From: Nannocystis sp.
Lineage (GTDB): Bacteria; Myxococcota_A; Polyangia; Nannocystales; Nannocystaceae
NCBI RefSeq assembly: GCF_016717175.1
Contig: NZ_JADKFZ010000004.1
DNA length: 64,000 nucleotides
Direction: 5' to 3' (one strand)
Shown: in pieces, positions 1,299-62,148 of the stretch
Numbering within the stretch: the stretch's first letter is position 1
Layout of the letters: the number at the start of each line of letters is the position of its first letter
Notes under the pieces: model-generated
The model's input: only the letters and a program-made list of their open reading frames with translations
The model's database searches: none
What the model was told of the DNA's origin: nothing
Program-made: the position numbers and the translations under genes

Positions 1299-1373
<75 letters not shown>

Positions 1374-1469: not shown

Positions 1470-4400
1470 ATGAAGCCGTCGGACGCAGATCTCGGCGATA
1501 CGACGGGTGTGCCCGAGTCGCCGGGCGTGAAGGCCACGCGATCGTCGGGGCCGCCGCTGCACACCTCGGGCGCGTCGATCGATCCGCTGGCGATGACCGG
1601 CACGAGCTCGGGTCAGGCGACGGCGCGGGTGGGTCGGCCGGGCTTCGACGTCGACGCCGAGCTGGCGCGCGCGCAGCTCGAGACGCGGCTCTACGGGGCC
1701 GGGCGCGGCGAGGGCGGGCCGCGGATCGGGAAGTATCAGATCCTCGATCACCTCGGGCGCGGCGGGATGGGCTCGGTGTACACGGTCTACAACCCGGACC
1801 TCGATCGCAAGAGCGTGATCAAGCTGGTCCGGCCCGATCGATCGAGCCCGGACAGCCGGCGGCGGCTGCTGCGGGAGGCCCGACTGACGGCGACGCTGTC
1901 GCATCCGAACGTGGTCCAGATCCACGACTCGGGCGAGTACCTCGACGAGATCTACGTGGTGATGGAGTTCATCGCCGGGGTCGACCTCGACGCGTGGCGG
2001 CGGCAAGGGCCGCACGCGTGGCCGGAGGTGCTGGCGGTGTATCGCCAGGCGGGGCTCGGGCTGGCGGCCGCGCACGCGCAGGGGGTCGTGCACCGCGACT
2101 TCACGCCGCGCAACGCGATGCTCGGCGAGGATGGGCGGGTGCGGGTCCTCGACTTCGGGCTGGCGCACGCGCGGCGCGATGCGGGCGAGGTGATCGACGG
2201 TGCGCCGGGGTCTGGCGGACCACGGCCCGCTGCGGTGGCGGTGAGCGACGCGATGTCGGAGCCGGGGTCGGGGGACAGCTTGACGGCGACGGGGGCGATC
2301 GTCGGCACGCCGCGCTACATGTCGCCCGAGCAGTTGCGGAGCGTGCCGACCGACGGGCGCAGCGATCAGTTCAGCTTCTGCGTCGCGCTGTGGGAGGCGC
2401 TGCTCGGGCACCTGCCGTTCATGGGCGCCGATCTGTTCGAGTACAACGAGGCGGCGCTGGCCGGGGACATCCGGCCGCCGGAGGATCTGCGGGGGGTGCC
2501 GCGGCGGGTGTTGAAGGCGCTGCGGCGCGGGCTGGCGCCGCGGGCGGACGATCGCTTCGCGGACATGCACGCGCTGCTGGCGGAGCTCGACGTGCGGCCG
2601 CTGCGGCCGTGGATCGGGCTCGCGGGGGTGGCGGGGGCGCTGGCGCTGGTCGGGCTGTGGTTCCTCGCCCTGCCGGCGACGCCAGTGTCGCCGCGCGAGC
2701 AGTGTGCGAGCGAGTTGGCGGACGAGCTGCCGGTGACGTGGTCGGCGCTGCCCGGGCCGATCGCGGGGCGACTGGGGGAGTTCGCGGACCGCTGGCGGGC
2801 GGCGCGGGTCGAGCTGTGCGCGGCGGGTGTGGCGGGCGGGCTGCCGGCGCCGGCGCTGCGGCGCGGGCTGCGTTGCCTGGAGAAGCAGCGGGCGGTGTTC
2901 GTGGGGCTGGTCGATCGGGTGACGGCCGGCGATGCGCTCGAGCTCGACCTCGGGGCGCTGCCGGACAGCGATCGGGTGGCGGCGTGCACGGATCCGCTGC
3001 GCCTCGCCGACGGGGCCGCGCCGCCGTCGCCCGCGGCGCGCGAGGCGGTGAGCCGGGTCGAGGCGGACCTGGCCCGCGCCGAGACGGCGCTGATCCTCGG
3101 GCGCTACGCCGAGAGTGAGGCGATCGCCGCGAGCGCGGTGCGGCGGGTCCGGGAGATCGGTCATGCGCCGACGCTGGCGGCGGCGCTGTACCAGCTGGCC
3201 CGCGCCGAGACCTACGGGCCGAACGCGGACGCGGCCGAGGCGACGTTGCGCGAGGCGGCGGGGCTGGCCGAGCGGCACGACCTGCACGACCTCGCGGCGG
3301 ACATCTATCTGCGCCTGGTGCGGGTGGCGATGGCCCACGGGCAGCGCAGCGCCGACGGCAGCGTGTGGTTCGCGGTCCTCGGCTACAAGCTGGCGCGGCT
3401 CGACGAGCGTCGCGGTCGGCGCTGGGCGGAGGGGCTCGAGTACCTCGGGGCGATCGCCCTCGACGCGCGTGAGCTGGCGACCGCCGAGAGTCTGTTCGAG
3501 CGGGGCGCGGCGGCCGAGGAGGGGGCCGGGCCGCTGCGTCGCGGCCTGGTCGAGCTGCGGCTCGGGCGGGTGCAGCGGCTGCGTGGCGATGCGGCGGGGG
3601 CGGCCGGGCGCTTCGCGCGGGGGCTCGCGCTGGCGGAGGAGGAGCTCGGGCCGGAGCACCCGCAGCTGGTGCAGTTCCTGGTCAACCTCGGCGAGGTGCA
3701 GCTCGAGCTGCGCGAGCTGGAGGCGGCGGAGGCGACGATCGGGCGCGGGCTGGCGATCTCTACGGGCGGGGCGGGCGGGGCGGGGCGCGGCGTGTACCGG
3801 CCGCAGCTGCTGCTCGCGGCGGCGCAGGTCGCCGAGCTGCGGGGCGACATGGCGGGCGCGGGGGCGCTGGCGCGGCAGGCCCGGGCCTTGCTGCGCGACC
3901 GGGCCCTGCCGGCCGATGTCCGCAGCTACCGCGGGGCGGTGCTCGACCTGGTGGCCCGGGCCGCGTTCGCGGCGGGCGACGCGACGGCGGCGCTGGACGC
4001 CTACAGCGAGCTGCTCGCGGTGCCGGAGGGGCACCTGTCCCGAGAGGCAGCTCGCTTGCTGATCGCGTACCGCAACGCGGCCGGGCTGGCGGTGACGCGC
4101 GAGCAGCCGGCGCTGGCGCTGCGCTTCGTGGCCGCGGCGGTGCCCCTGCTGGGCGAGCCGGGGCTGGCGGAGGCGGCCGGCGAGGCGCTGCGGGTCGATC
4201 TGGCGGCCCGCGAGGGGGAGGCCTTGCTGGCCCTGGGGCGGCCGGCGGCGGCGGTCCTGGTCGCCGAGCGCGCGCTCGAGCGCTGGGACCCGCAGGGCCG
4301 GCGGGAGGACGCCTCCACCGCCGACCTGCACCTGCTGTGCTTCGAGGCGCTGAAGCAGCGGGCGCCGACGCAGGCGCTGCCGCACGCGCGGGCGGCCCTG

Positions 4401-4487
4401 CGATACTTCGCGAACGAGGCGTCGCTGCGCGAGATCACGGAGATCCTCGAGACATGGTTGCGCCGCTACCCGGGACCCTCGCGCTGA
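1470..4487 (+). CDS. Ser/Thr protein kinase with TM segment and long C-terminal TPR-like helical-repeat domain
   Basis: Gly loop LGRGGMGSVY, VIK lysine, catalytic loop HRDFTPRN, DFG, SPE. TM helix after the kinase domain. C-terminal ~650 aa Ala/Leu-rich repeats. ATG at 1470 is in frame with the track ORF 840..4487; the stretch upstream of 1470 is low-complexity. Confidence 0.85.
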   Translation: MKPSDADLGDTTGVPESPGVKATRSSGPPLHTSGASIDPLAMTGTSSGQATARVGRPGFDVDAELARAQLETRLYGAGRGEGGPRIGKYQILDHLGRGGMGSVYTVYNPDLDRKSVIKLVRPDRSSPDSRRRLLREARLTATLSHPNVVQIHDSGEYLDEIYVVMEFIAGVDLDAWRRQGPHAWPEVLAVYRQAGLGLAAAHAQGVVHRDFTPRNAMLGEDGRVRVLDFGLAHARRDAGEVIDGAPGSGGPRPAAVAVSDAMSEPGSGDSLTATGAIVGTPRYMSPEQLRSVPTDGRSDQFSFCVALWEALLGHLPFMGADLFEYNEAALAGDIRPPEDLRGVPRRVLKALRRGLAPRADDRFADMHALLAELDVRPLRPWIGLAGVAGALALVGLWFLALPATPVSPREQCASELADELPVTWSALPGPIAGRLGEFADRWRAARVELCAAGVAGGLPAPALRRGLRCLEKQRAVFVGLVDRVTAGDALELDLGALPDSDRVAACTDPLRLADGAAPPSPAAREAVSRVEADLARAETALILGRYAESEAIAASAVRRVREIGHAPTLAAALYQLARAETYGPNADAAEATLREAAGLAERHDLHDLAADIYLRLVRVAMAHGQRSADGSVWFAVLGYKLARLDERRGRRWAEGLEYLGAIALDARELATAESLFERGAAAEEGAGPLRRGLVELRLGRVQRLRGDAAGAAGRFARGLALAEEELGPEHPQLVQFLVNLGEVQLELRELEAAEATIGRGLAISTGGAGGAGRGVYRPQLLLAAAQVAELRGDMAGAGALARQARALLRDRALPADVRSYRGAVLDLVARAAFAAGDATAALDAYSELLAVPEGHLSREAARLLIAYRNAAGLAVTREQPALALRFVAAAVPLLGEPGLAEAAGEALRVDLAAREGEALLALGRPAAAVLVAERALERWDPQGRREDASTADLHLLCFEALKQRAPTQALPHARAALRYFANEASLREITEILETWLRRYPGPSR

Positions 4488-4512: not shown

Positions 4513-4833
4513 ATGCCAGACCTGCTCACTGCATCCACGAATAGCTGCGATGACCCGAAGACCCCGCTGGTCGAGCTGTGTAGCGCGATCCGGCGGCCGA
4601 GGCCGTTGACGGGGAGCGTCGGCGGCGGCGGCGGCTCGGGTGGCAGCGGCCACATGCCGAACCCCGAGGAGCTGGTGGCCAAGGCGCTCGAGCACGTGTG
4701 GGACGCGCTGTCGGATCAGATCCAGACCCTGCGGGCCGAGAACCGCAGCTTGCAGGAGAAGATGGACGCGATGCAGCACAGCTTCGGCAGCGAGCTGGCG
4801 GCGGCGCGCAAGGTCGCCGAGCGCCAGCGCTGA
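4513..4833 (+). CDS. small hypothetical protein: N-terminal Cys pair, Gly-rich linker, coiled-coil
   Basis: 106-aa ORF with a weak SD (gaaggaccgag) and non-random composition (ELVAKALEHVWDALSDQIQTLRAENRSLQEKMDAMQ). No family recognised. Confidence 0.4.
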   Translation: MPDLLTASTNSCDDPKTPLVELCSAIRRPRPLTGSVGGGGGSGGSGHMPNPEELVAKALEHVWDALSDQIQTLRAENRSLQEKMDAMQHSFGSELAAARKVAERQR

Positions 4834-4920: not shown

Positions 4921-5379
4921 TCACGCGGCGGCGCGGCGCGGGCGGGCGATCCGGAGATCGGGGCGCCCGCGCTCGAGCATGAAGCGCCACAGCGGCTTGT
5001 CGCTCTTGGCCCGGTTGCACGGGCCGCAGCTGGGCACCAGGTTGTCCGGGTGGTTGCTGCCGCCGCGCGAGCGCGGGACCACGTGGTCCCGCGTCACCTC
5101 GCGCTTGCACAGGCGCGCGCCGCAGTAGGTGCAGAGCGTGCGCACGTGCCAGAGGTAGTGGCGGAACTCGCTGGTGAAGCAGACATCGAGGCGATCGTGG
5201 ATAACGTCGGCGACGGAGGTCTTCTTGTAGCGTGCGGTCTCCCGGAGCCGGCCCAGACGCCCGTCGCCCTTGCCCTGGCGCAGGCCCATCTTGCGCAGAT
5301 GGCGTGCCAGGTAGAACTCGGGGCCGCGCTCCGGGCGGGGCGTGAGGGTGTCGTATTCGTGTTTCAGCTTGACGTACAT
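4921..5379 (-). CDS. HNH endonuclease
   Basis: CTYCGARL...TRDHVVPRSRGGSNHPDNLVPSCGPCNRAKSDK is a canonical HNH/zinc-finger nuclease motif. Consensus SD AAGGAGG 6 nt upstream of the ATG. Confidence 0.85.
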   Translation of the reverse strand: MYVKLKHEYDTLTPRPERGPEFYLARHLRKMGLRQGKGDGRLGRLRETARYKKTSVADVIHDRLDVCFTSEFRHYLWHVRTLCTYCGARLCKREVTRDHVVPRSRGGSNHPDNLVPSCGPCNRAKSDKPLWRFMLERGRPDLRIARPRRAAA

Positions 5380-5626: not shown

Positions 5627-5870
5627 GACGGCCTCCTTCTCGGCGGAGCGATGGATGAATGGACAGAGATAAAGCGCGCAGAGGGAGTTGAACCCTCGCT
5701 TCCTCCGTGGCAGGGAGGCGTGCGGCCACCAGCACCTTGCGCGCAGATCGATGGATCGACGGGTGTGGCCGCGACGGGCCAATGCCGCGGCGAATCGGTG
5801 CCCACGGATATGTGGGCACTTGCGGAGCTGCGACGGCGGGCCGCGGTCCGACGGAGGGCCGATCGAGCGG

Positions 5871-6283: not shown

Positions 6284-8626
6284 TCAGGGCGGCGCGATGC
6301 GGGCGCGGAGGATGTGGTCGCCGAGGGCGAGGGCGTCCAGGCGATCGGGATGACCGTGCTGGTCTGGGCGCAGGCGGCCGATCCAGGTGTAGCGGCCCTC
6401 GAGGTGCGGGGCGCGGGCGTGCATGAAGAAGAACTGGCTGCCGCCGGTGTCCTTGCCGGCGTCGGCGATGCCGACCGCGCCGCGATCGAAGGCGTGGTCG
6501 CCGGGCTCGCTCGGGAGCACGAAGCCGGGGCCGCCCCAGCCGTTGCCGTCGGGGTCGCCGCCCTGAAGCACGAAGCCCGGGACGTCGCGGTGGAAGCGGA
6601 GGCCGTCGTAGTAGCCGCGGCGGGTGAGGGCGACGATCTCGGCGACGGCCCAGGGCGCGGCGGTGGGGTCGAGGTCGATCTCGAGGTCGCCGACCTCGGT
6701 GCTGAGGATCCAGCGGATCGGGGCGCCGGGCAGGCTGCGCGGGTCGAGCGGCGGCGGGGGCAGTGCTGCGGCGGTGGCGATCGAGGCGGCGTTGCCCGGG
6801 CCCGGGTCGGGGGCGGTGGCGATCGCGGCGGCGGGGCCCTGGCCCTGGCCGCGGAGCTGCTGCACGCAGGCGCGGGCGGCCTTGCGGACGGCGGGGCTGG
6901 CGTGGGCGCGGCTGGCCTCGCAGACGGGGAGACCGGCGGCGACACCGGTGGCCGCGAGGGTGGCGAGGAGGGTGCTGTGCAGCTCGGGCTCGCGGGCGGC
7001 GTGGGCGGTGGCGAGGGCGGCGAGGCGCTGCCACAGCGGATCGCTGGCGGCGAGGAGCGATGGCTTGGCGTGGGTCGGTGGCTTGTCGTGCGGTGCGGCG
7101 ATCACATCGGCGGCCGATCCGACGACGCCGAGGACCGGGTCGGCGAGGGCGCGCAGCAGCCAGGCGTGGACGATCGTGGTGGTCGCGGGGTCGTGCCACA
7201 GCGGGCCGAGAGCGGCGACGGCGGCGAGGCGCAGCTGTGGATCGGTGGCGGTGAGGAGCGCGTCGAGCCGGGCGGCGCGCGCGGGCCAGGGGCCGCCGAA
7301 GCCGTGGATCAGCGGGCCGAGCTCGTGGGCCTCGCGCTCGCCGGGGCGCAGCAGCGGGCTCTGGCAGACGAGCGGCGGGCGCCAGCGCGGGTCGTGGGCG
7401 AGGCGCGCGGCGAGCAGGCAGTCGATGCGGGCGAGCAGGCGACGACGAGCTTCGCGGCGGGCGTCGTCGAGGTTGGCTGCGTTGGTGGGTGGGTTCGTGG
7501 GCGAGTTGTTGTTGGTCGCGGTGGGTGGGCTCGTTGGTGTGTTGTTGTTGGTCGTGGCGGGTGGGTTGATCGGCGAGTTGTTGGTGGTCGTGGTGGTGTT
7601 GCGATCGATCGCGGTGCGCAGCTGCTCGAGGGCGTGGCGCTCGCGGATCGAGGGGGCGGTGGTCTCGCTGGCGAGGCACGCGAGGGCGGCGTGGAGCTGG
7701 CGGGCGTGGGCGAGGCGCTGGGGCTCGTCCTGCGTGCGGTCGGCGATGCTGCTGCGGGCCCAGGCGAGGACGGCGAGGACGGCGGTCTGGCGATCGGGGG
7801 CGATGAGGGCGGCGAGGCGGCGCGGGTCGCTGGCGGCGGCGGGCAGCTCGCGGGTGAGGCAGGCTTGCAGCGGCGGTGTGGCGCTGCGGCGGACCAGGCC
7901 GGCGAGGGCGAGGCGCTGGAGCTCGCGGTCGCTGCTGCGGGTGTGGTCCCGCAGGAGGGCGAGGATCGACGGATCGGGGGGCGGCGTGTGCTCGTTGGCG
8001 AGGGCGTAGAGGGCGGCGTAGGTGAGCGCGGGGTCGCTGGCCAGGGCGAGGAGGTTGGCGCGGGTCGGGGCGTCGAGCGGGTGCTTGCGGCGACCGAGCA
8101 CGCCGAGGGCGATCGCGGCGGTGCTGCGCAGGGCCGGGCTCGCGGTCGGGGCGAGGGCGTCGCGCAGGACGGGCAGAGATGCGGGGCCTCCGAGGCGGCC
8201 GAGAGCCTCGGCGATGGCGCGGCGCTCGTCGGCGTCGGCGCGCGGCCAGGCGGTGAGGAGGGCGGCGTCGAGGTCGGTGAGCTCGGTGTCGAGGAGGGCG
8301 GCGATGCCGAGCGCACGCGCGGCGTGCTCGCGTCGGCGAGGATCGTCGCCGCGGAGCAGGGTGAGCAGGGCGGCGATCGCCGGCGGGTCGCCGACGCGTG
8401 CGAGGGCGAGGATCACCGGGCCGGGATCGGGGTCGCCGAGGCGAGCGATGAGGGGGGCGCTGTCGCGGCGCAGCTCGAGCTCGAAGAGGGGGGTCGCGGG
8501 GATCGTTGTCGTGGTTGGGGCGGGGCCGGGGGGCGCGGCGGGGACCTGCGGGGGCGCAGCGGGGACCTGCGGGGGCGCGCAGGCGAGCAGGCAGCTCAGG
8601 GTCGTGAGGGCGAGGGCCGGGCGCAT
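6284..8626 (-). CDS. HEAT/ARM-repeat lipoprotein with C-terminal cyclophilin-type peptidyl-prolyl isomerase domain
   Basis: Signal/lipobox MRPALALTTLSCLLAC. Long PxxAxxALxxL HEAT-like repeats. C-terminus FHRDVPGFVLQGGDP...GGPGF...GSQFFF matches the cyclophilin signature. Confidence 0.85.
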   Translation of the reverse strand: MRPALALTTLSCLLACAPPQVPAAPPQVPAAPPGPAPTTTTIPATPLFELELRRDSAPLIARLGDPDPGPVILALARVGDPPAIAALLTLLRGDDPRRREHAARALGIAALLDTELTDLDAALLTAWPRADADERRAIAEALGRLGGPASLPVLRDALAPTASPALRSTAAIALGVLGRRKHPLDAPTRANLLALASDPALTYAALYALANEHTPPPDPSILALLRDHTRSSDRELQRLALAGLVRRSATPPLQACLTRELPAAASDPRRLAALIAPDRQTAVLAVLAWARSSIADRTQDEPQRLAHARQLHAALACLASETTAPSIRERHALEQLRTAIDRNTTTTTNNSPINPPATTNNNTPTSPPTATNNNSPTNPPTNAANLDDARREARRRLLARIDCLLAARLAHDPRWRPPLVCQSPLLRPGEREAHELGPLIHGFGGPWPARAARLDALLTATDPQLRLAAVAALGPLWHDPATTTIVHAWLLRALADPVLGVVGSAADVIAAPHDKPPTHAKPSLLAASDPLWQRLAALATAHAAREPELHSTLLATLAATGVAAGLPVCEASRAHASPAVRKAARACVQQLRGQGQGPAAAIATAPDPGPGNAASIATAAALPPPPLDPRSLPGAPIRWILSTEVGDLEIDLDPTAAPWAVAEIVALTRRGYYDGLRFHRDVPGFVLQGGDPDGNGWGGPGFVLPSEPGDHAFDRGAVGIADAGKDTGGSQFFFMHARAPHLEGRYTWIGRLRPDQHGHPDRLDALALGDHILRARIAPP
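7480..7620. repeat. lower-GC ~36-bp tandem repeat x3 inside the HEAT-PPIase gene (encodes an Asn/Thr/Pro-rich insert)
   Basis: ggtgggtgggttcgtgggcgagttgttgttggtcgc-type units encode ...TTTTTNNSPINPPATTNNNTPTSPPTATNNNSPTNPPTNAAN... Confidence 0.7.
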
Positions 8627-19142: not shown

Positions 19143-19190
19143 GGTGGGACGATAACCTGGGTGGGAGCGCGGGCGGTGGGGCACGGGCCG

Positions 19191-19272
19191 GGGTGGGGGG
19201 GGGGGGGGGGGGGGGGGGCGGGGGGGGGGGGCGGGGGGGGGGGGGGGCCCGGGGGGGGGGGGGGGGGGGGGT
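19191..19272. repeat. ~80-nt near-pure poly-G (poly-C on the minus strand) homopolymeric tract
   Basis: gggtgggggg gggggggggg ggggggggcg gggggggggg gcgggggggg gggggggccc ggggggggggggggggggggg read directly. Lies 50-130 nt upstream of the minus-strand lipoprotein start at 19142. Confidence 0.95.
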
Positions 19273-19618
19273 GGGGCCCTGGGGCCCGGGGGCCCGGGGG
19301 CGCCGCCCCGCGCCGCGGGGGGCCCTCCGGCGCGCGACGCCTCCGCTAAAGGCAAGGCGGTCGGCGTCGCCGAGAGCCGGCCCCACCCCGGCCCTGAATG
19401 GGGTGACGTCGCTGCGCGGTATGTAGCAGCGAATGCGACGGGTTGCACTCGATATGTCGCATTGCTGTGAGCCTCGAAGCGCTCACCGTTCAATGCACTC
19501 AAATGGGTCCGGGGCAGTCCTGCGGAGCGTCCGTGTCGGGCGCGCACATTGCTGTCGGGCCCATGTCGCCGCAACAATCGTCGTGGCTGCAGAGGATGCA
19601 ACTCCATTCGAAGCAGGC

Positions 19619-19832
19619 CGTGATGCGTCCAATGTGAATGAGTTGTGGTCGCCGTGTGGCACCTTTCGTTCCTGTCCGAAGAGGCAGGTTGCGAGTCTCA
19701 GGCCGGGGCGGGCCTCGGCGACGCCGTGATGCATGCAATGTGAATGAGTTGTGGTCGCCGTGTGGCACCTTTCGTTCCTGTCCGAAGAGGCAGGTTACGA
19801 GTCTCAGGGCCGGGGCGGGTCCGGCCTCGGCA
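19619..19832. repeat. 107-bp tandem duplication (2 copies) of a lower-GC element
   Basis: gtgatgcgtccaatgtgaatgagttgtggtcgccgtgtggcacctttcgttcctgtccgaagaggcaggttgcgagtctcaggccggggcggg... repeats from 19726 with ~6 mismatches. Copy 2 ends in the hairpin GGCCGGggcgggtCCGGCC. Confidence 0.9.

Positions 19833-60360: not shown

Positions 60361-62148
<1,788 letters not shown>

Follow-up and report, generated by a model that had tools for sequence, protein, structure and literature searches.

Can a protein kinase that has lost the lysine of its catalytic loop still be an active Ser/Thr kinase, and what would then stand in for the missing residue? The question is raised by K1, a gene for a Hanks-type kinase located at positions 1470-4487 (+) of a 64,000-nucleotide stretch of DNA from Nannocystis sp. 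(contig NZ_JADKFZ010000004.1 of assembly GCF_016717175.1; G+C content 73.8%), referred to below as the window. The Ser/Thr-specific members of the Hanks family are characterized by the loop sequence HRDxKxxN. K1 reads HRDFTPRN instead (residues 208-215; 2091-2114 (+), CAC CGC GAC TTC ACG CCG CGC AAC): D210 is the catalytic aspartate, T212 replaces the lysine, R214 stands two residues further on and N215 closes the loop. Counting from the aspartate of HRD, these positions are called here D+2 (Thr212), D+3 (Pro) and D+4 (Arg214); similarly, K-2 is counted from the β3 lysine. The reading that we favour, with a probability of about 0.6, is that K1 is an active Ser/Thr kinase whose Arg214 would replace the lost catalytic-loop lysine.

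The gene itself is intact. It has a probable ATG start at 1470, a stop codon at 4485-4487 and 1005 uninterrupted codons, and its start corresponds to the N-terminus annotated by NCBI for P0001, a protein of Nannocystis sp. that is 97% identical to K1 and yet is annotated at 666 residues only. Pfam recognizes a Pkinase domain (PF00069, 119.9 bits for a cut-off of 31.7; PK_Tyr_Ser-Thr, 86.4 bits) and, in the C-terminal part, a TPR-like region (residues ~658-885, 3441-4124; TPR_12, 31.5 bits; TPR_MalT, 25.9 bits). The two are divided by a 21-residue hydrophobic stretch, WIGLAGVAGALALVGLWFLAL (residues 381-401, 2610-2672), which was read by eye from the sequence and is presumably a single transmembrane helix. 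Because this stretch lies between the Pkinase and the TPR matches, K1 appears to be a membrane-anchored kinase-transmembrane-TPR protein, an architecture common to thousands of myxobacterial homologues.

Apart from the lysine at D+2, the kinase domain lacks nothing that defines a Hanks-type kinase. The Gly-rich loop GRGGMGSV (residues 96-103, 1755-1778), the β3 lysine K118 within SVIK (1812-1823), the αC glutamate (in LLREARL), D210, N215, the DFG motif with D228 (residues 228-230, 2151-2159) and the SPE motif (residues 285-287) are all present, as are the aspartate of subdomain IX (DQFSF) and the arginine of subdomain XI (DDRF). The SPE motif ends a P+1 loop of the Ser/Thr-kinase type, GTPRYMSPE (residues 279-287 with Thr280, 2304-2330). 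Between DFG and this loop lies a long activation-loop insert (2160-2303), predicted to be disordered, and a similar one is found in the paralogue K3. Since HRDFTPRN is read in frame within the Pfam Pkinase domain, it is not a chance occurrence of the string. The first-pass annotation of this DNA had placed the loop within 2090-2125, with the other Hanks motifs intact and the two other kinases of the window canonical, and all of this stands: the other two loops, read directly, are HRDFKPDN in K3 (60916-60939 (+)) and HRDIKPEN (38741-38718 (-)).

A homologue search across 5.8 billion proteins made it possible to compare K1 with its top homologues, namely 5 members of its own clade and 115 others. 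The five closest full-length relatives (P0001-P0005, 97 to 51% identical) all have HRD[FY]TPRN. The next matches, P0006 from Nannocystis poenicansa (44%) and P0007 from N. pusilla (41%), have Lys at D+2, and so do all of the 115 other top homologues listed, none of which has Arg at D+4. The orthologous kinase domains are 65-78% identical, with Thr and Arg invariant, while the DNA of four orthologues shows ACG or ACC for the threonine and CGC, CGA or CGT for the arginine. Since synonymous codons vary at both positions, the two residues are kept by selection and are not a sequencing artefact; synonymous sites are saturated at 65-78% amino acid identity, and it is codon variation at the two residues themselves that serves as evidence that Thr212 and Arg214 are both held by purifying selection.

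The loop is a derived state. The kinase domain of K1 is 46-52% identical to its HRDFKPxN relatives and shares no more than 38% identity with any other collected kinase that has a [ST]PRN loop, which argues that the K1 loop has an independent origin. These relatives (kinase-transmembrane-TPR proteins of Nannocystaceae and other Myxococcota, including P0006 and P0007, and the kinase domain of K3) belong to the same family and have the same architecture. They share with K1 the Phe at D+1, the long activation-loop insert and the GTPxYMxPE motif, and differ from it in having Lys at D+2, Asp, Ser, Glu or Ala but never Arg at D+4, and VAxK in β3. When 1.84 billion representative proteins were searched exhaustively with HMMER, the TPRN loop was confined, within the K1 family, to members of the K1 clade; among the 171 Lys-type loops scored in the best 150 proteins, Arg occupied D+4 in a single case, and a lysine was never found in the P+1 loop. 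The two states are a single nucleotide apart at each residue: the Thr212 codon ACG (2103-2105 (+)) and the Arg214 codon CGC (2109-2111 (+)) correspond to AAG (Lys) and AGC (Ser) in the nearest Lys-type relative, P0006 (locus L246). On these comparisons, the loop is a recent and independent innovation within a family of Lys-type kinases. Only six sequences of the clade are known, all apparently from Nannocystaceae; the clade carries about 25 further specific substitutions, including R233H after DFG and SVIK for VAxK, that is, Ala to Val at K-2.

Loops of this type are not peculiar to the K1 clade. One genome per bacterial species was scanned for HRDx[ST]PRN followed by DFG 12 residues later, using patterns limited to CGN codons for Arg, ACN or TCN codons for Thr or Ser, HRD, DFG and a spacer of exactly 12 residues. 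At least 120 such kinases were found in seven phyla, with 86 TPR and 34 SPR loops among the matches listed. The carriers listed are Myxococcota, Deinococcota, Planctomycetota, Actinomycetota, Alphaproteobacteria, Acidobacteriota and one metagenome-assembled genome of Ruminococcaceae; all 120 listed matches lie in long open reading frames (ORFs), and 101 of them have a recognizable P+1 motif, G-x-x-x-x-x-[AS]PE. In a second scan, made on metagenomes, any residue was allowed at D+4 (HRDx[ST]PxN); among the matches listed, Gln, Ser and His prevail at this position, and Arg occurs in 4 of 123. Thus, judging from these scans, the HRDx[ST]PRN loop is widespread rather than exceptional. No published mention of these loop strings, nor of a relocation rule such as the one proposed below, was found in a search from which the subscription literature was largely absent, so that "undescribed" is provisional; the D+2 lysine is not discussed in the paper on the microbial kinome (PMC1821047). 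MasK, the Hanks-type "tyrosine kinase" reported in M. xanthus, might carry such a loop; the Myxococcus TPRN kinase of locus L013 is a different protein, having no recR or mgl neighbours.

An indication of what Arg at D+4 might do came from the P+1 loop of kinases with Ser or Thr at D+2. Among the matches listed in the two scans, which form a non-random sample, loops with Arg at D+4 have G[TS] in the P+1 loop in 98 cases and GK in 3, whereas loops with another residue at D+4 have G[TS] in 5 cases and GK in 95. The association is strong (Fisher p = 8e-47, kinship ignored), and the metagenome sample alone, with GK to G[TS] ratios of 0/4 and 95/5, gives p = 3e-5. For comparison, the background of Lys-type kinases was drawn from the homologue sets, the 120 genome loci having yielded just 6 extra kinases: GT or GS occurs in 90 of 94 scorable P+1 loops (89 GT, 1 GS), and GK in none.

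Grouping by single linkage at 60% identity left 53 pure clusters with Arg and GT, 77 pure clusters without Arg and with GK, and 2 pure clusters with both Arg and GK; the remainder consisted of 5 clusters with neither Arg nor GK (GT in the P+1 loop), 1 in which Arg+GK and non-Arg+GK members are mixed, and 1 other. On a crude neighbour-joining tree, built after masking of the three scored columns, parsimony requires about 26 changes in the Arg state and about 16 in the P+1-Lys state. The states are even swapped between kinases 47-57% identical to each other, for instance HRDVSPRN/GTFAYMAPE versus HRDVSPEN/GKFAYVAPE. Indicatively, therefore, an arginine at D+4 and a lysine in the P+1 loop appear to be nearly mutually exclusive when D+2 is Ser or Thr. 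This would fit the need for one basic residue near the site of phosphoryl transfer. K1, with T212, R214 and T280, falls in the class that has Arg at D+4 and G[TS] in the P+1 loop, to which 98 of the 101 sampled Arg-type loops belong.

The other class, HRDx[ST]PxN with GK in the P+1 loop (for example HRDVSPQN...GKxxYMSPE), is abundant in Myxococcota-rich metagenomes, and its members are 47-57% identical to some [ST]PRN kinases. Like K1, they have lost the D+2 lysine to Ser or Thr and have Pro at D+3; unlike K1, they carry the basic residue not at D+4 but in the P+1 loop, where PKA has T201. Three loci (L078, L081 and L087; HRDV[ST]PRN with GKxxYMSPE) have both Arg at D+4 and the P+1 lysine, and plausibly represent evolutionary steps from one compensation class to the other. 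The converse was also seen. Five proteins of ~700-1240 residues, matched by the search over multiple stretches (P0255, P0259, P0268, P0292 and P0307), have an HRD[VL]TP[GS]N kinase domain, or HRDLVPGN in P0292, with neither compensating basic residue; their P+1 loop is of the GT type except in P0259, where none was recognized. A separate group reads HRDLTP[LV]N...GDFG and has no recognizable APE motif. All of these, the metagenome loci L138, L152 and L167 included, could be degenerate or regulatory kinase domains.

How could an arginine at D+4 take over from a lysine at D+2? The D+2 lysine corresponds to K168 of PKA, where it is hydrogen-bonded to T201. In canonical Ser/Thr kinases, the Ser or Thr of the P+1 loop contacts the catalytic loop (PMC6213207). 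In the K1 lineage, the D+2 Lys was changed to Thr and the D+4 Ser to Arg, by one substitution each. The guanidinium group of Arg214 would then assume the role of the lysine: it would neutralize the γ-phosphate during the transition state, and would pair with the catalytic aspartate and with the P+1 threonine. It would be placed as is the D+4 arginine of receptor tyrosine kinases, while the substrate site would otherwise stay of the Ser/Thr type (Pro at D+3, GT in the P+1 loop). The geometry of Arg214, the catalytic competence of K1 and its preference for Ser/Thr are what we infer.

That the D+2 lysine is dispensable for the phosphorylation of Ser and Thr is indicated by the activity of two kinases, RqkA and LIMK1. 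RqkA (DR_2518) represents a family of DNA-damage-responsive Ser/Thr quinoprotein kinases of Deinococcota. It phosphorylates FtsZ on S235 and S335 and FtsA on T272, S370 and S386 in vitro (PMC6052341), and RecA is a further reported substrate, modified on Y77 and T318 (PMC8093518). In the family as collected here (P0121-P0240), Thr is found at D+2 in 120 of 120 members and Pro at D+3 with one exception; at D+4, 61 of the 120 have Gly, 36 Arg and 14 His, and every P+1 loop that can be scored is GT. The link to RqkA is made by one member annotated as such (from D. xinjiangensis), which has Gly at D+4, and by a 668-residue Deinococcus member whose K42, N142, M154 and D155 agree with the numbering published for the D. 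radiodurans enzyme. K1 shares with the family Thr at D+2 and the GT P+1 loop, but does not belong to it, since the RqkA family has a C-terminal eight-bladed β-propeller of the PQQ/WD40-like type (PF13360/PF13570/PF01011) rather than a transmembrane segment and TPRs, and since its best matches to the kinase domain of K1 are ~34-38% identical. As for the distribution within the family, among the loci examined Arg was seen at D+4 in those of Deinococcales, Trueperaceae and Meiothermus, while the named Deinococcus species examined have Gly, and a few have His or Asn; the arginine may have been secondarily lost in an RqkA family that stayed functional.

LIMK1 (HRDLNSHN, with MVMK in β3) is active without a D+2 lysine (PMC8750758). 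LIMK1 and LIMK2 resemble K1 in this and in the Val at K-2 (MVMK versus SVIK), but have Asn and His rather than Thr and Arg, belong to the eukaryotic TKL group, act on cofilin, and are related to K1 in sequence no further than through the kinase fold. WNK provides a precedent of principle for the relocation of an "invariant" lysine: its β3 lysine is supplied from another structural element (PMC1821047), although in that case it is the equivalent of K72 that has moved, to the Gly loop.

These precedents also bear on the best-surviving alternative, which we hold to be unlikely: K1 would be an attenuated kinase or a pseudokinase-like scaffold, the loss of the D+2 lysine together with SVIK having cut catalysis, and would signal by binding, through its TPRs or a downstream partner. 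The D+2 lysine is nearly invariant in Ser/Thr kinases, and scanning mutagenesis of yeast PKA by Gibbs and Zoller in 1991 reportedly found the charged residues of the catalytic loop to be important. The clade has, besides, the Ala to Val change at K-2, in the adenine pocket, and R233H after DFG. However, the β3 Lys, the αC Glu, the HRD Asp, the Asn and the DFG Asp are all kept, and pseudokinases are recognized by the loss of residues such as K118, D210 and D228, all three of which K1 retains. Moreover, Thr212 and Arg214 are both under purifying selection, the mutual exclusion of Arg and the P+1 lysine would be hard to explain were catalysis dispensable, and LIMK1 combines MVMK with the absence of the D+2 lysine and yet is active. 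The suggestion of the first-pass annotation that the loop might mean reduced activity finds no support: the loop is widespread, and RqkA, with Thr at D+2, phosphorylates Ser and Thr. That annotation had named orthologues carrying the loop and endowed with Ser/Thr activity as the finding that would tell against it; RqkA approaches this, being active, but is not an orthologue, and the Deinococcus members of its family have Gly at D+4.

It is rather improbable that K1 is directed to tyrosine or has dual specificity, that is, that the T-P-R loop shifts its acceptor preference toward Tyr. Tyrosine kinases have a P+1 loop of the form P-[IV]-[KR]-W-x-APE, and Ser/Thr-type kinases one of the form G-[TS]-x-x-[YF]-x-APE. 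That of K1, GTPRYMSPE, has Thr and no P-x-x-W. The loop of K1 shares with HRDLAARN the absence of the D+2 lysine and the Arg at D+4 preceding the invariant Asn, but has Thr-Pro at D+2 and D+3 where HRDLAARN has Ala-Ala (the other Tyr-kinase loop compared was HRDLRAAN), and with a Ser/Thr-type P+1 loop in K1 the likeness to receptor tyrosine kinases would be convergent and not a sign of subfamily homology. As a lead rather than a test, provisional forms of the PROSITE active-site patterns were applied: 176 of the 205 other [ST]PxN loops fit the Tyr one, a point in favour of tyrosine, while K1 fits neither that nor the Ser/Thr one, failing the Tyr pattern by the Ala that follows its Asn.

Profile and fold give the same answer. 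The Pkinase and PK_Tyr_Ser-Thr scores of K1 (119.9 and 86.4 bits) show the same gap as those of the canonical paralogue K3 (123.4 and 89.7 bits), and the nearest sequences of known structure are those of PknE, StkP and PknB. An AlphaFold2 model built with 56 homologues has a predicted local distance difference test score (pLDDT) of 86.3 and a predicted template-modelling score of 0.83, the blocks of the catalytic loop reaching pLDDT 93-97 and disorder being limited to the long activation-loop insert (model residues 154-187, pLDDT <50). The 50 best fold matches in the PDB are all Ser/Thr kinases and none is a Tyr kinase, with Foldseek template-modelling scores of ~0.7-0.84 to Stk1, PknA/B/E and CaMKII. 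Because the P+1 loop, the profile and the fold are all those of a Ser/Thr kinase, K1 is probably an ordinary Hanks Ser/Thr kinase and not a Tyr kinase; the catalytic residues that it retains set it apart from pseudokinases.

Some published observations speak for tyrosine. The arginine of HRDLAARN acts at the phospho-acceptor site and hydrogen-bonds the hydroxyl of the substrate tyrosine (PMC4771162), and Arg214 stands at the same D+4 position; RqkA, with Thr at D+2, has the Y77 of RecA among its reported targets, although its mapped substrate residues are mostly Ser and Thr; and LIMKs, devoid of the D+2 lysine, are described as Ser/Thr and Tyr kinases (PMC10000741). The comparison with tyrosine-kinase loops made in the first-pass annotation is upheld in one respect. 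The exclusivity described above and the class to which K1 belongs support the structural analogy with HRDLAARN, and Arg at D+4 looks, from covariation and selection, like a relocated replacement for the lysine; the altered specificity that the annotation thought possible, if taken as one for tyrosine, finds no support in the P+1 loop, the Pro at D+3, the Pfam scores or the fold matches.

Neutral drift, by which Thr212 and Arg214 would be unrelated chance fixations in a small clade, is very improbable. The clade numbers only six known sequences and has ~25 other substitutions of its own, and proteins of the RqkA type do without Arg at D+4. Against this, both residues are invariant at 65-78% identity of the kinase domain while their codons vary, Arg at D+4 is found in 0 of 115 and 1 of 171 Lys-type loops listed versus 5 of 5 in the clade, and the reciprocal association with the P+1 residue is strong over many lineages. 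Nothing was found to suggest that the loop is an error of sequencing or assembly, or K1 a pseudogene in decay, and the orthologues effectively refute this: the 1005 codons are intact, five assemblies and metagenomes, independent of one another, share the loop, and the domain organization is conserved over the full length.

Several points weigh against our preferred reading, that Arg214 stands in for the lysine of an active Ser/Thr kinase. Arg at D+4 is, to judge from the Deinococcus proteins with HRDLTPGN and GT, not obligatory: these have no obvious substitute for the lysine, which means that compensation may be only partly needed or may be supplied elsewhere. The change from VAxK to SVIK and the other changes of the clade could lower or retune activity. 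Finally, the covariation figures ignore kinship, were obtained with restricted codon and spacer patterns and concern the listed matches only, so that the numbers are indicative.

Beyond K1, the data can be put in the form of a rule, "one basic residue, three addresses", according to which bacterial Hanks kinases have either Lys at D+2, Arg at D+4 or a Lys in the P+1 loop. We regard the chances that it holds as evenly balanced. The same even odds apply to the proposal that lineages switch repeatedly among the three addresses, the K1 clade being a recent and cleanly resolved case of a switch from Lys to Thr together with Ser to Arg.

In the neighbourhood of K1, the upstream genes vary among the orthologous loci and only a small downstream gene is conserved. 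This 106-codon ORF (4513-4833 (+)) begins 25 nucleotides past the K1 stop codon and is present in all five loci of the TPRN clade. Its homologues lie at 8991-9341 in L121, 8932-9201 in L122, 4319-4639 in L124, where the copy is more divergent, and 3162-3485 in L125; none was found 3' of the Lys-type P0006 gene (L246). The protein consists of an N-terminal CDDP[KR]T..VE.C..IRRP segment, a Gly-rich linker, an HMPNPE motif and a coiled coil; it has no Pfam family, a sub-threshold match to a ZapB-like coiled coil being the sole one. The product may be a partner or a substrate of K1, the link being positional.

A few other features of the window were recorded. An Rfam scan of it detected two tRNAs only, tRNA-Pro(CGG) at 1299-1373 (-), just upstream of K1, and tRNA-Gly(GCC) at 5673-5744 (-). 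The latter adjoins a 152-codon ORF (4921-5379 (-)) with an HNH-nuclease-like Cys/His motif (CxxC...DHVVPRSRGGSNHPDNLVPSCGPCN), and the area could be a small region that is mobile or prone to integration. A 780-codon ORF (6284-8626 (-)) shows, by eye, HEAT-like repeats, a low-complexity Thr/Asn/Pro insert that contains a 36-bp tandem repeat (7483-7611), and a cyclophilin-like C-terminus (FHRDVPGFVLQGGDP...). At 19185-19300, ~90 nucleotides of almost pure G on the + strand are followed by a GGGCCC-rich segment, which is unusual even at 74% G+C and could be either an artefact of assembly or basecalling or a G-quadruplex-prone tract. Shortly after it, at 19617-19819, a 106-bp unit is repeated 1.9 times with 95% identity in an apparently intergenic stretch of lower G+C.

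Taken alone, K1 is one more myxobacterial Ser/Thr kinase, and it is its context that is more useful. The lysine of the catalytic loop is supposed to be a hallmark of Ser/Thr kinases, but it is replaced in large groups of bacteria, in either of two ways that all but exclude each other. A natural experiment on this replacement is offered by the K1 lineage, where the evolutionary distance is short and K3, of the ancestral type, serves as a control in the same genome. For annotation, loops of the HRDx[ST]PRN type are no evidence for tyrosine kinases or for pseudokinases. With regard to the evolution of tyrosine kinases, the D+4 Arg solution can evolve on a Ser/Thr background with the P+1 loop unchanged. 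If the rule is true, HRDxxxRN arose many times in bacteria without Tyr specificity, and signature-based calls of a bacterial "tyrosine kinase active site" would be systematically misleading.

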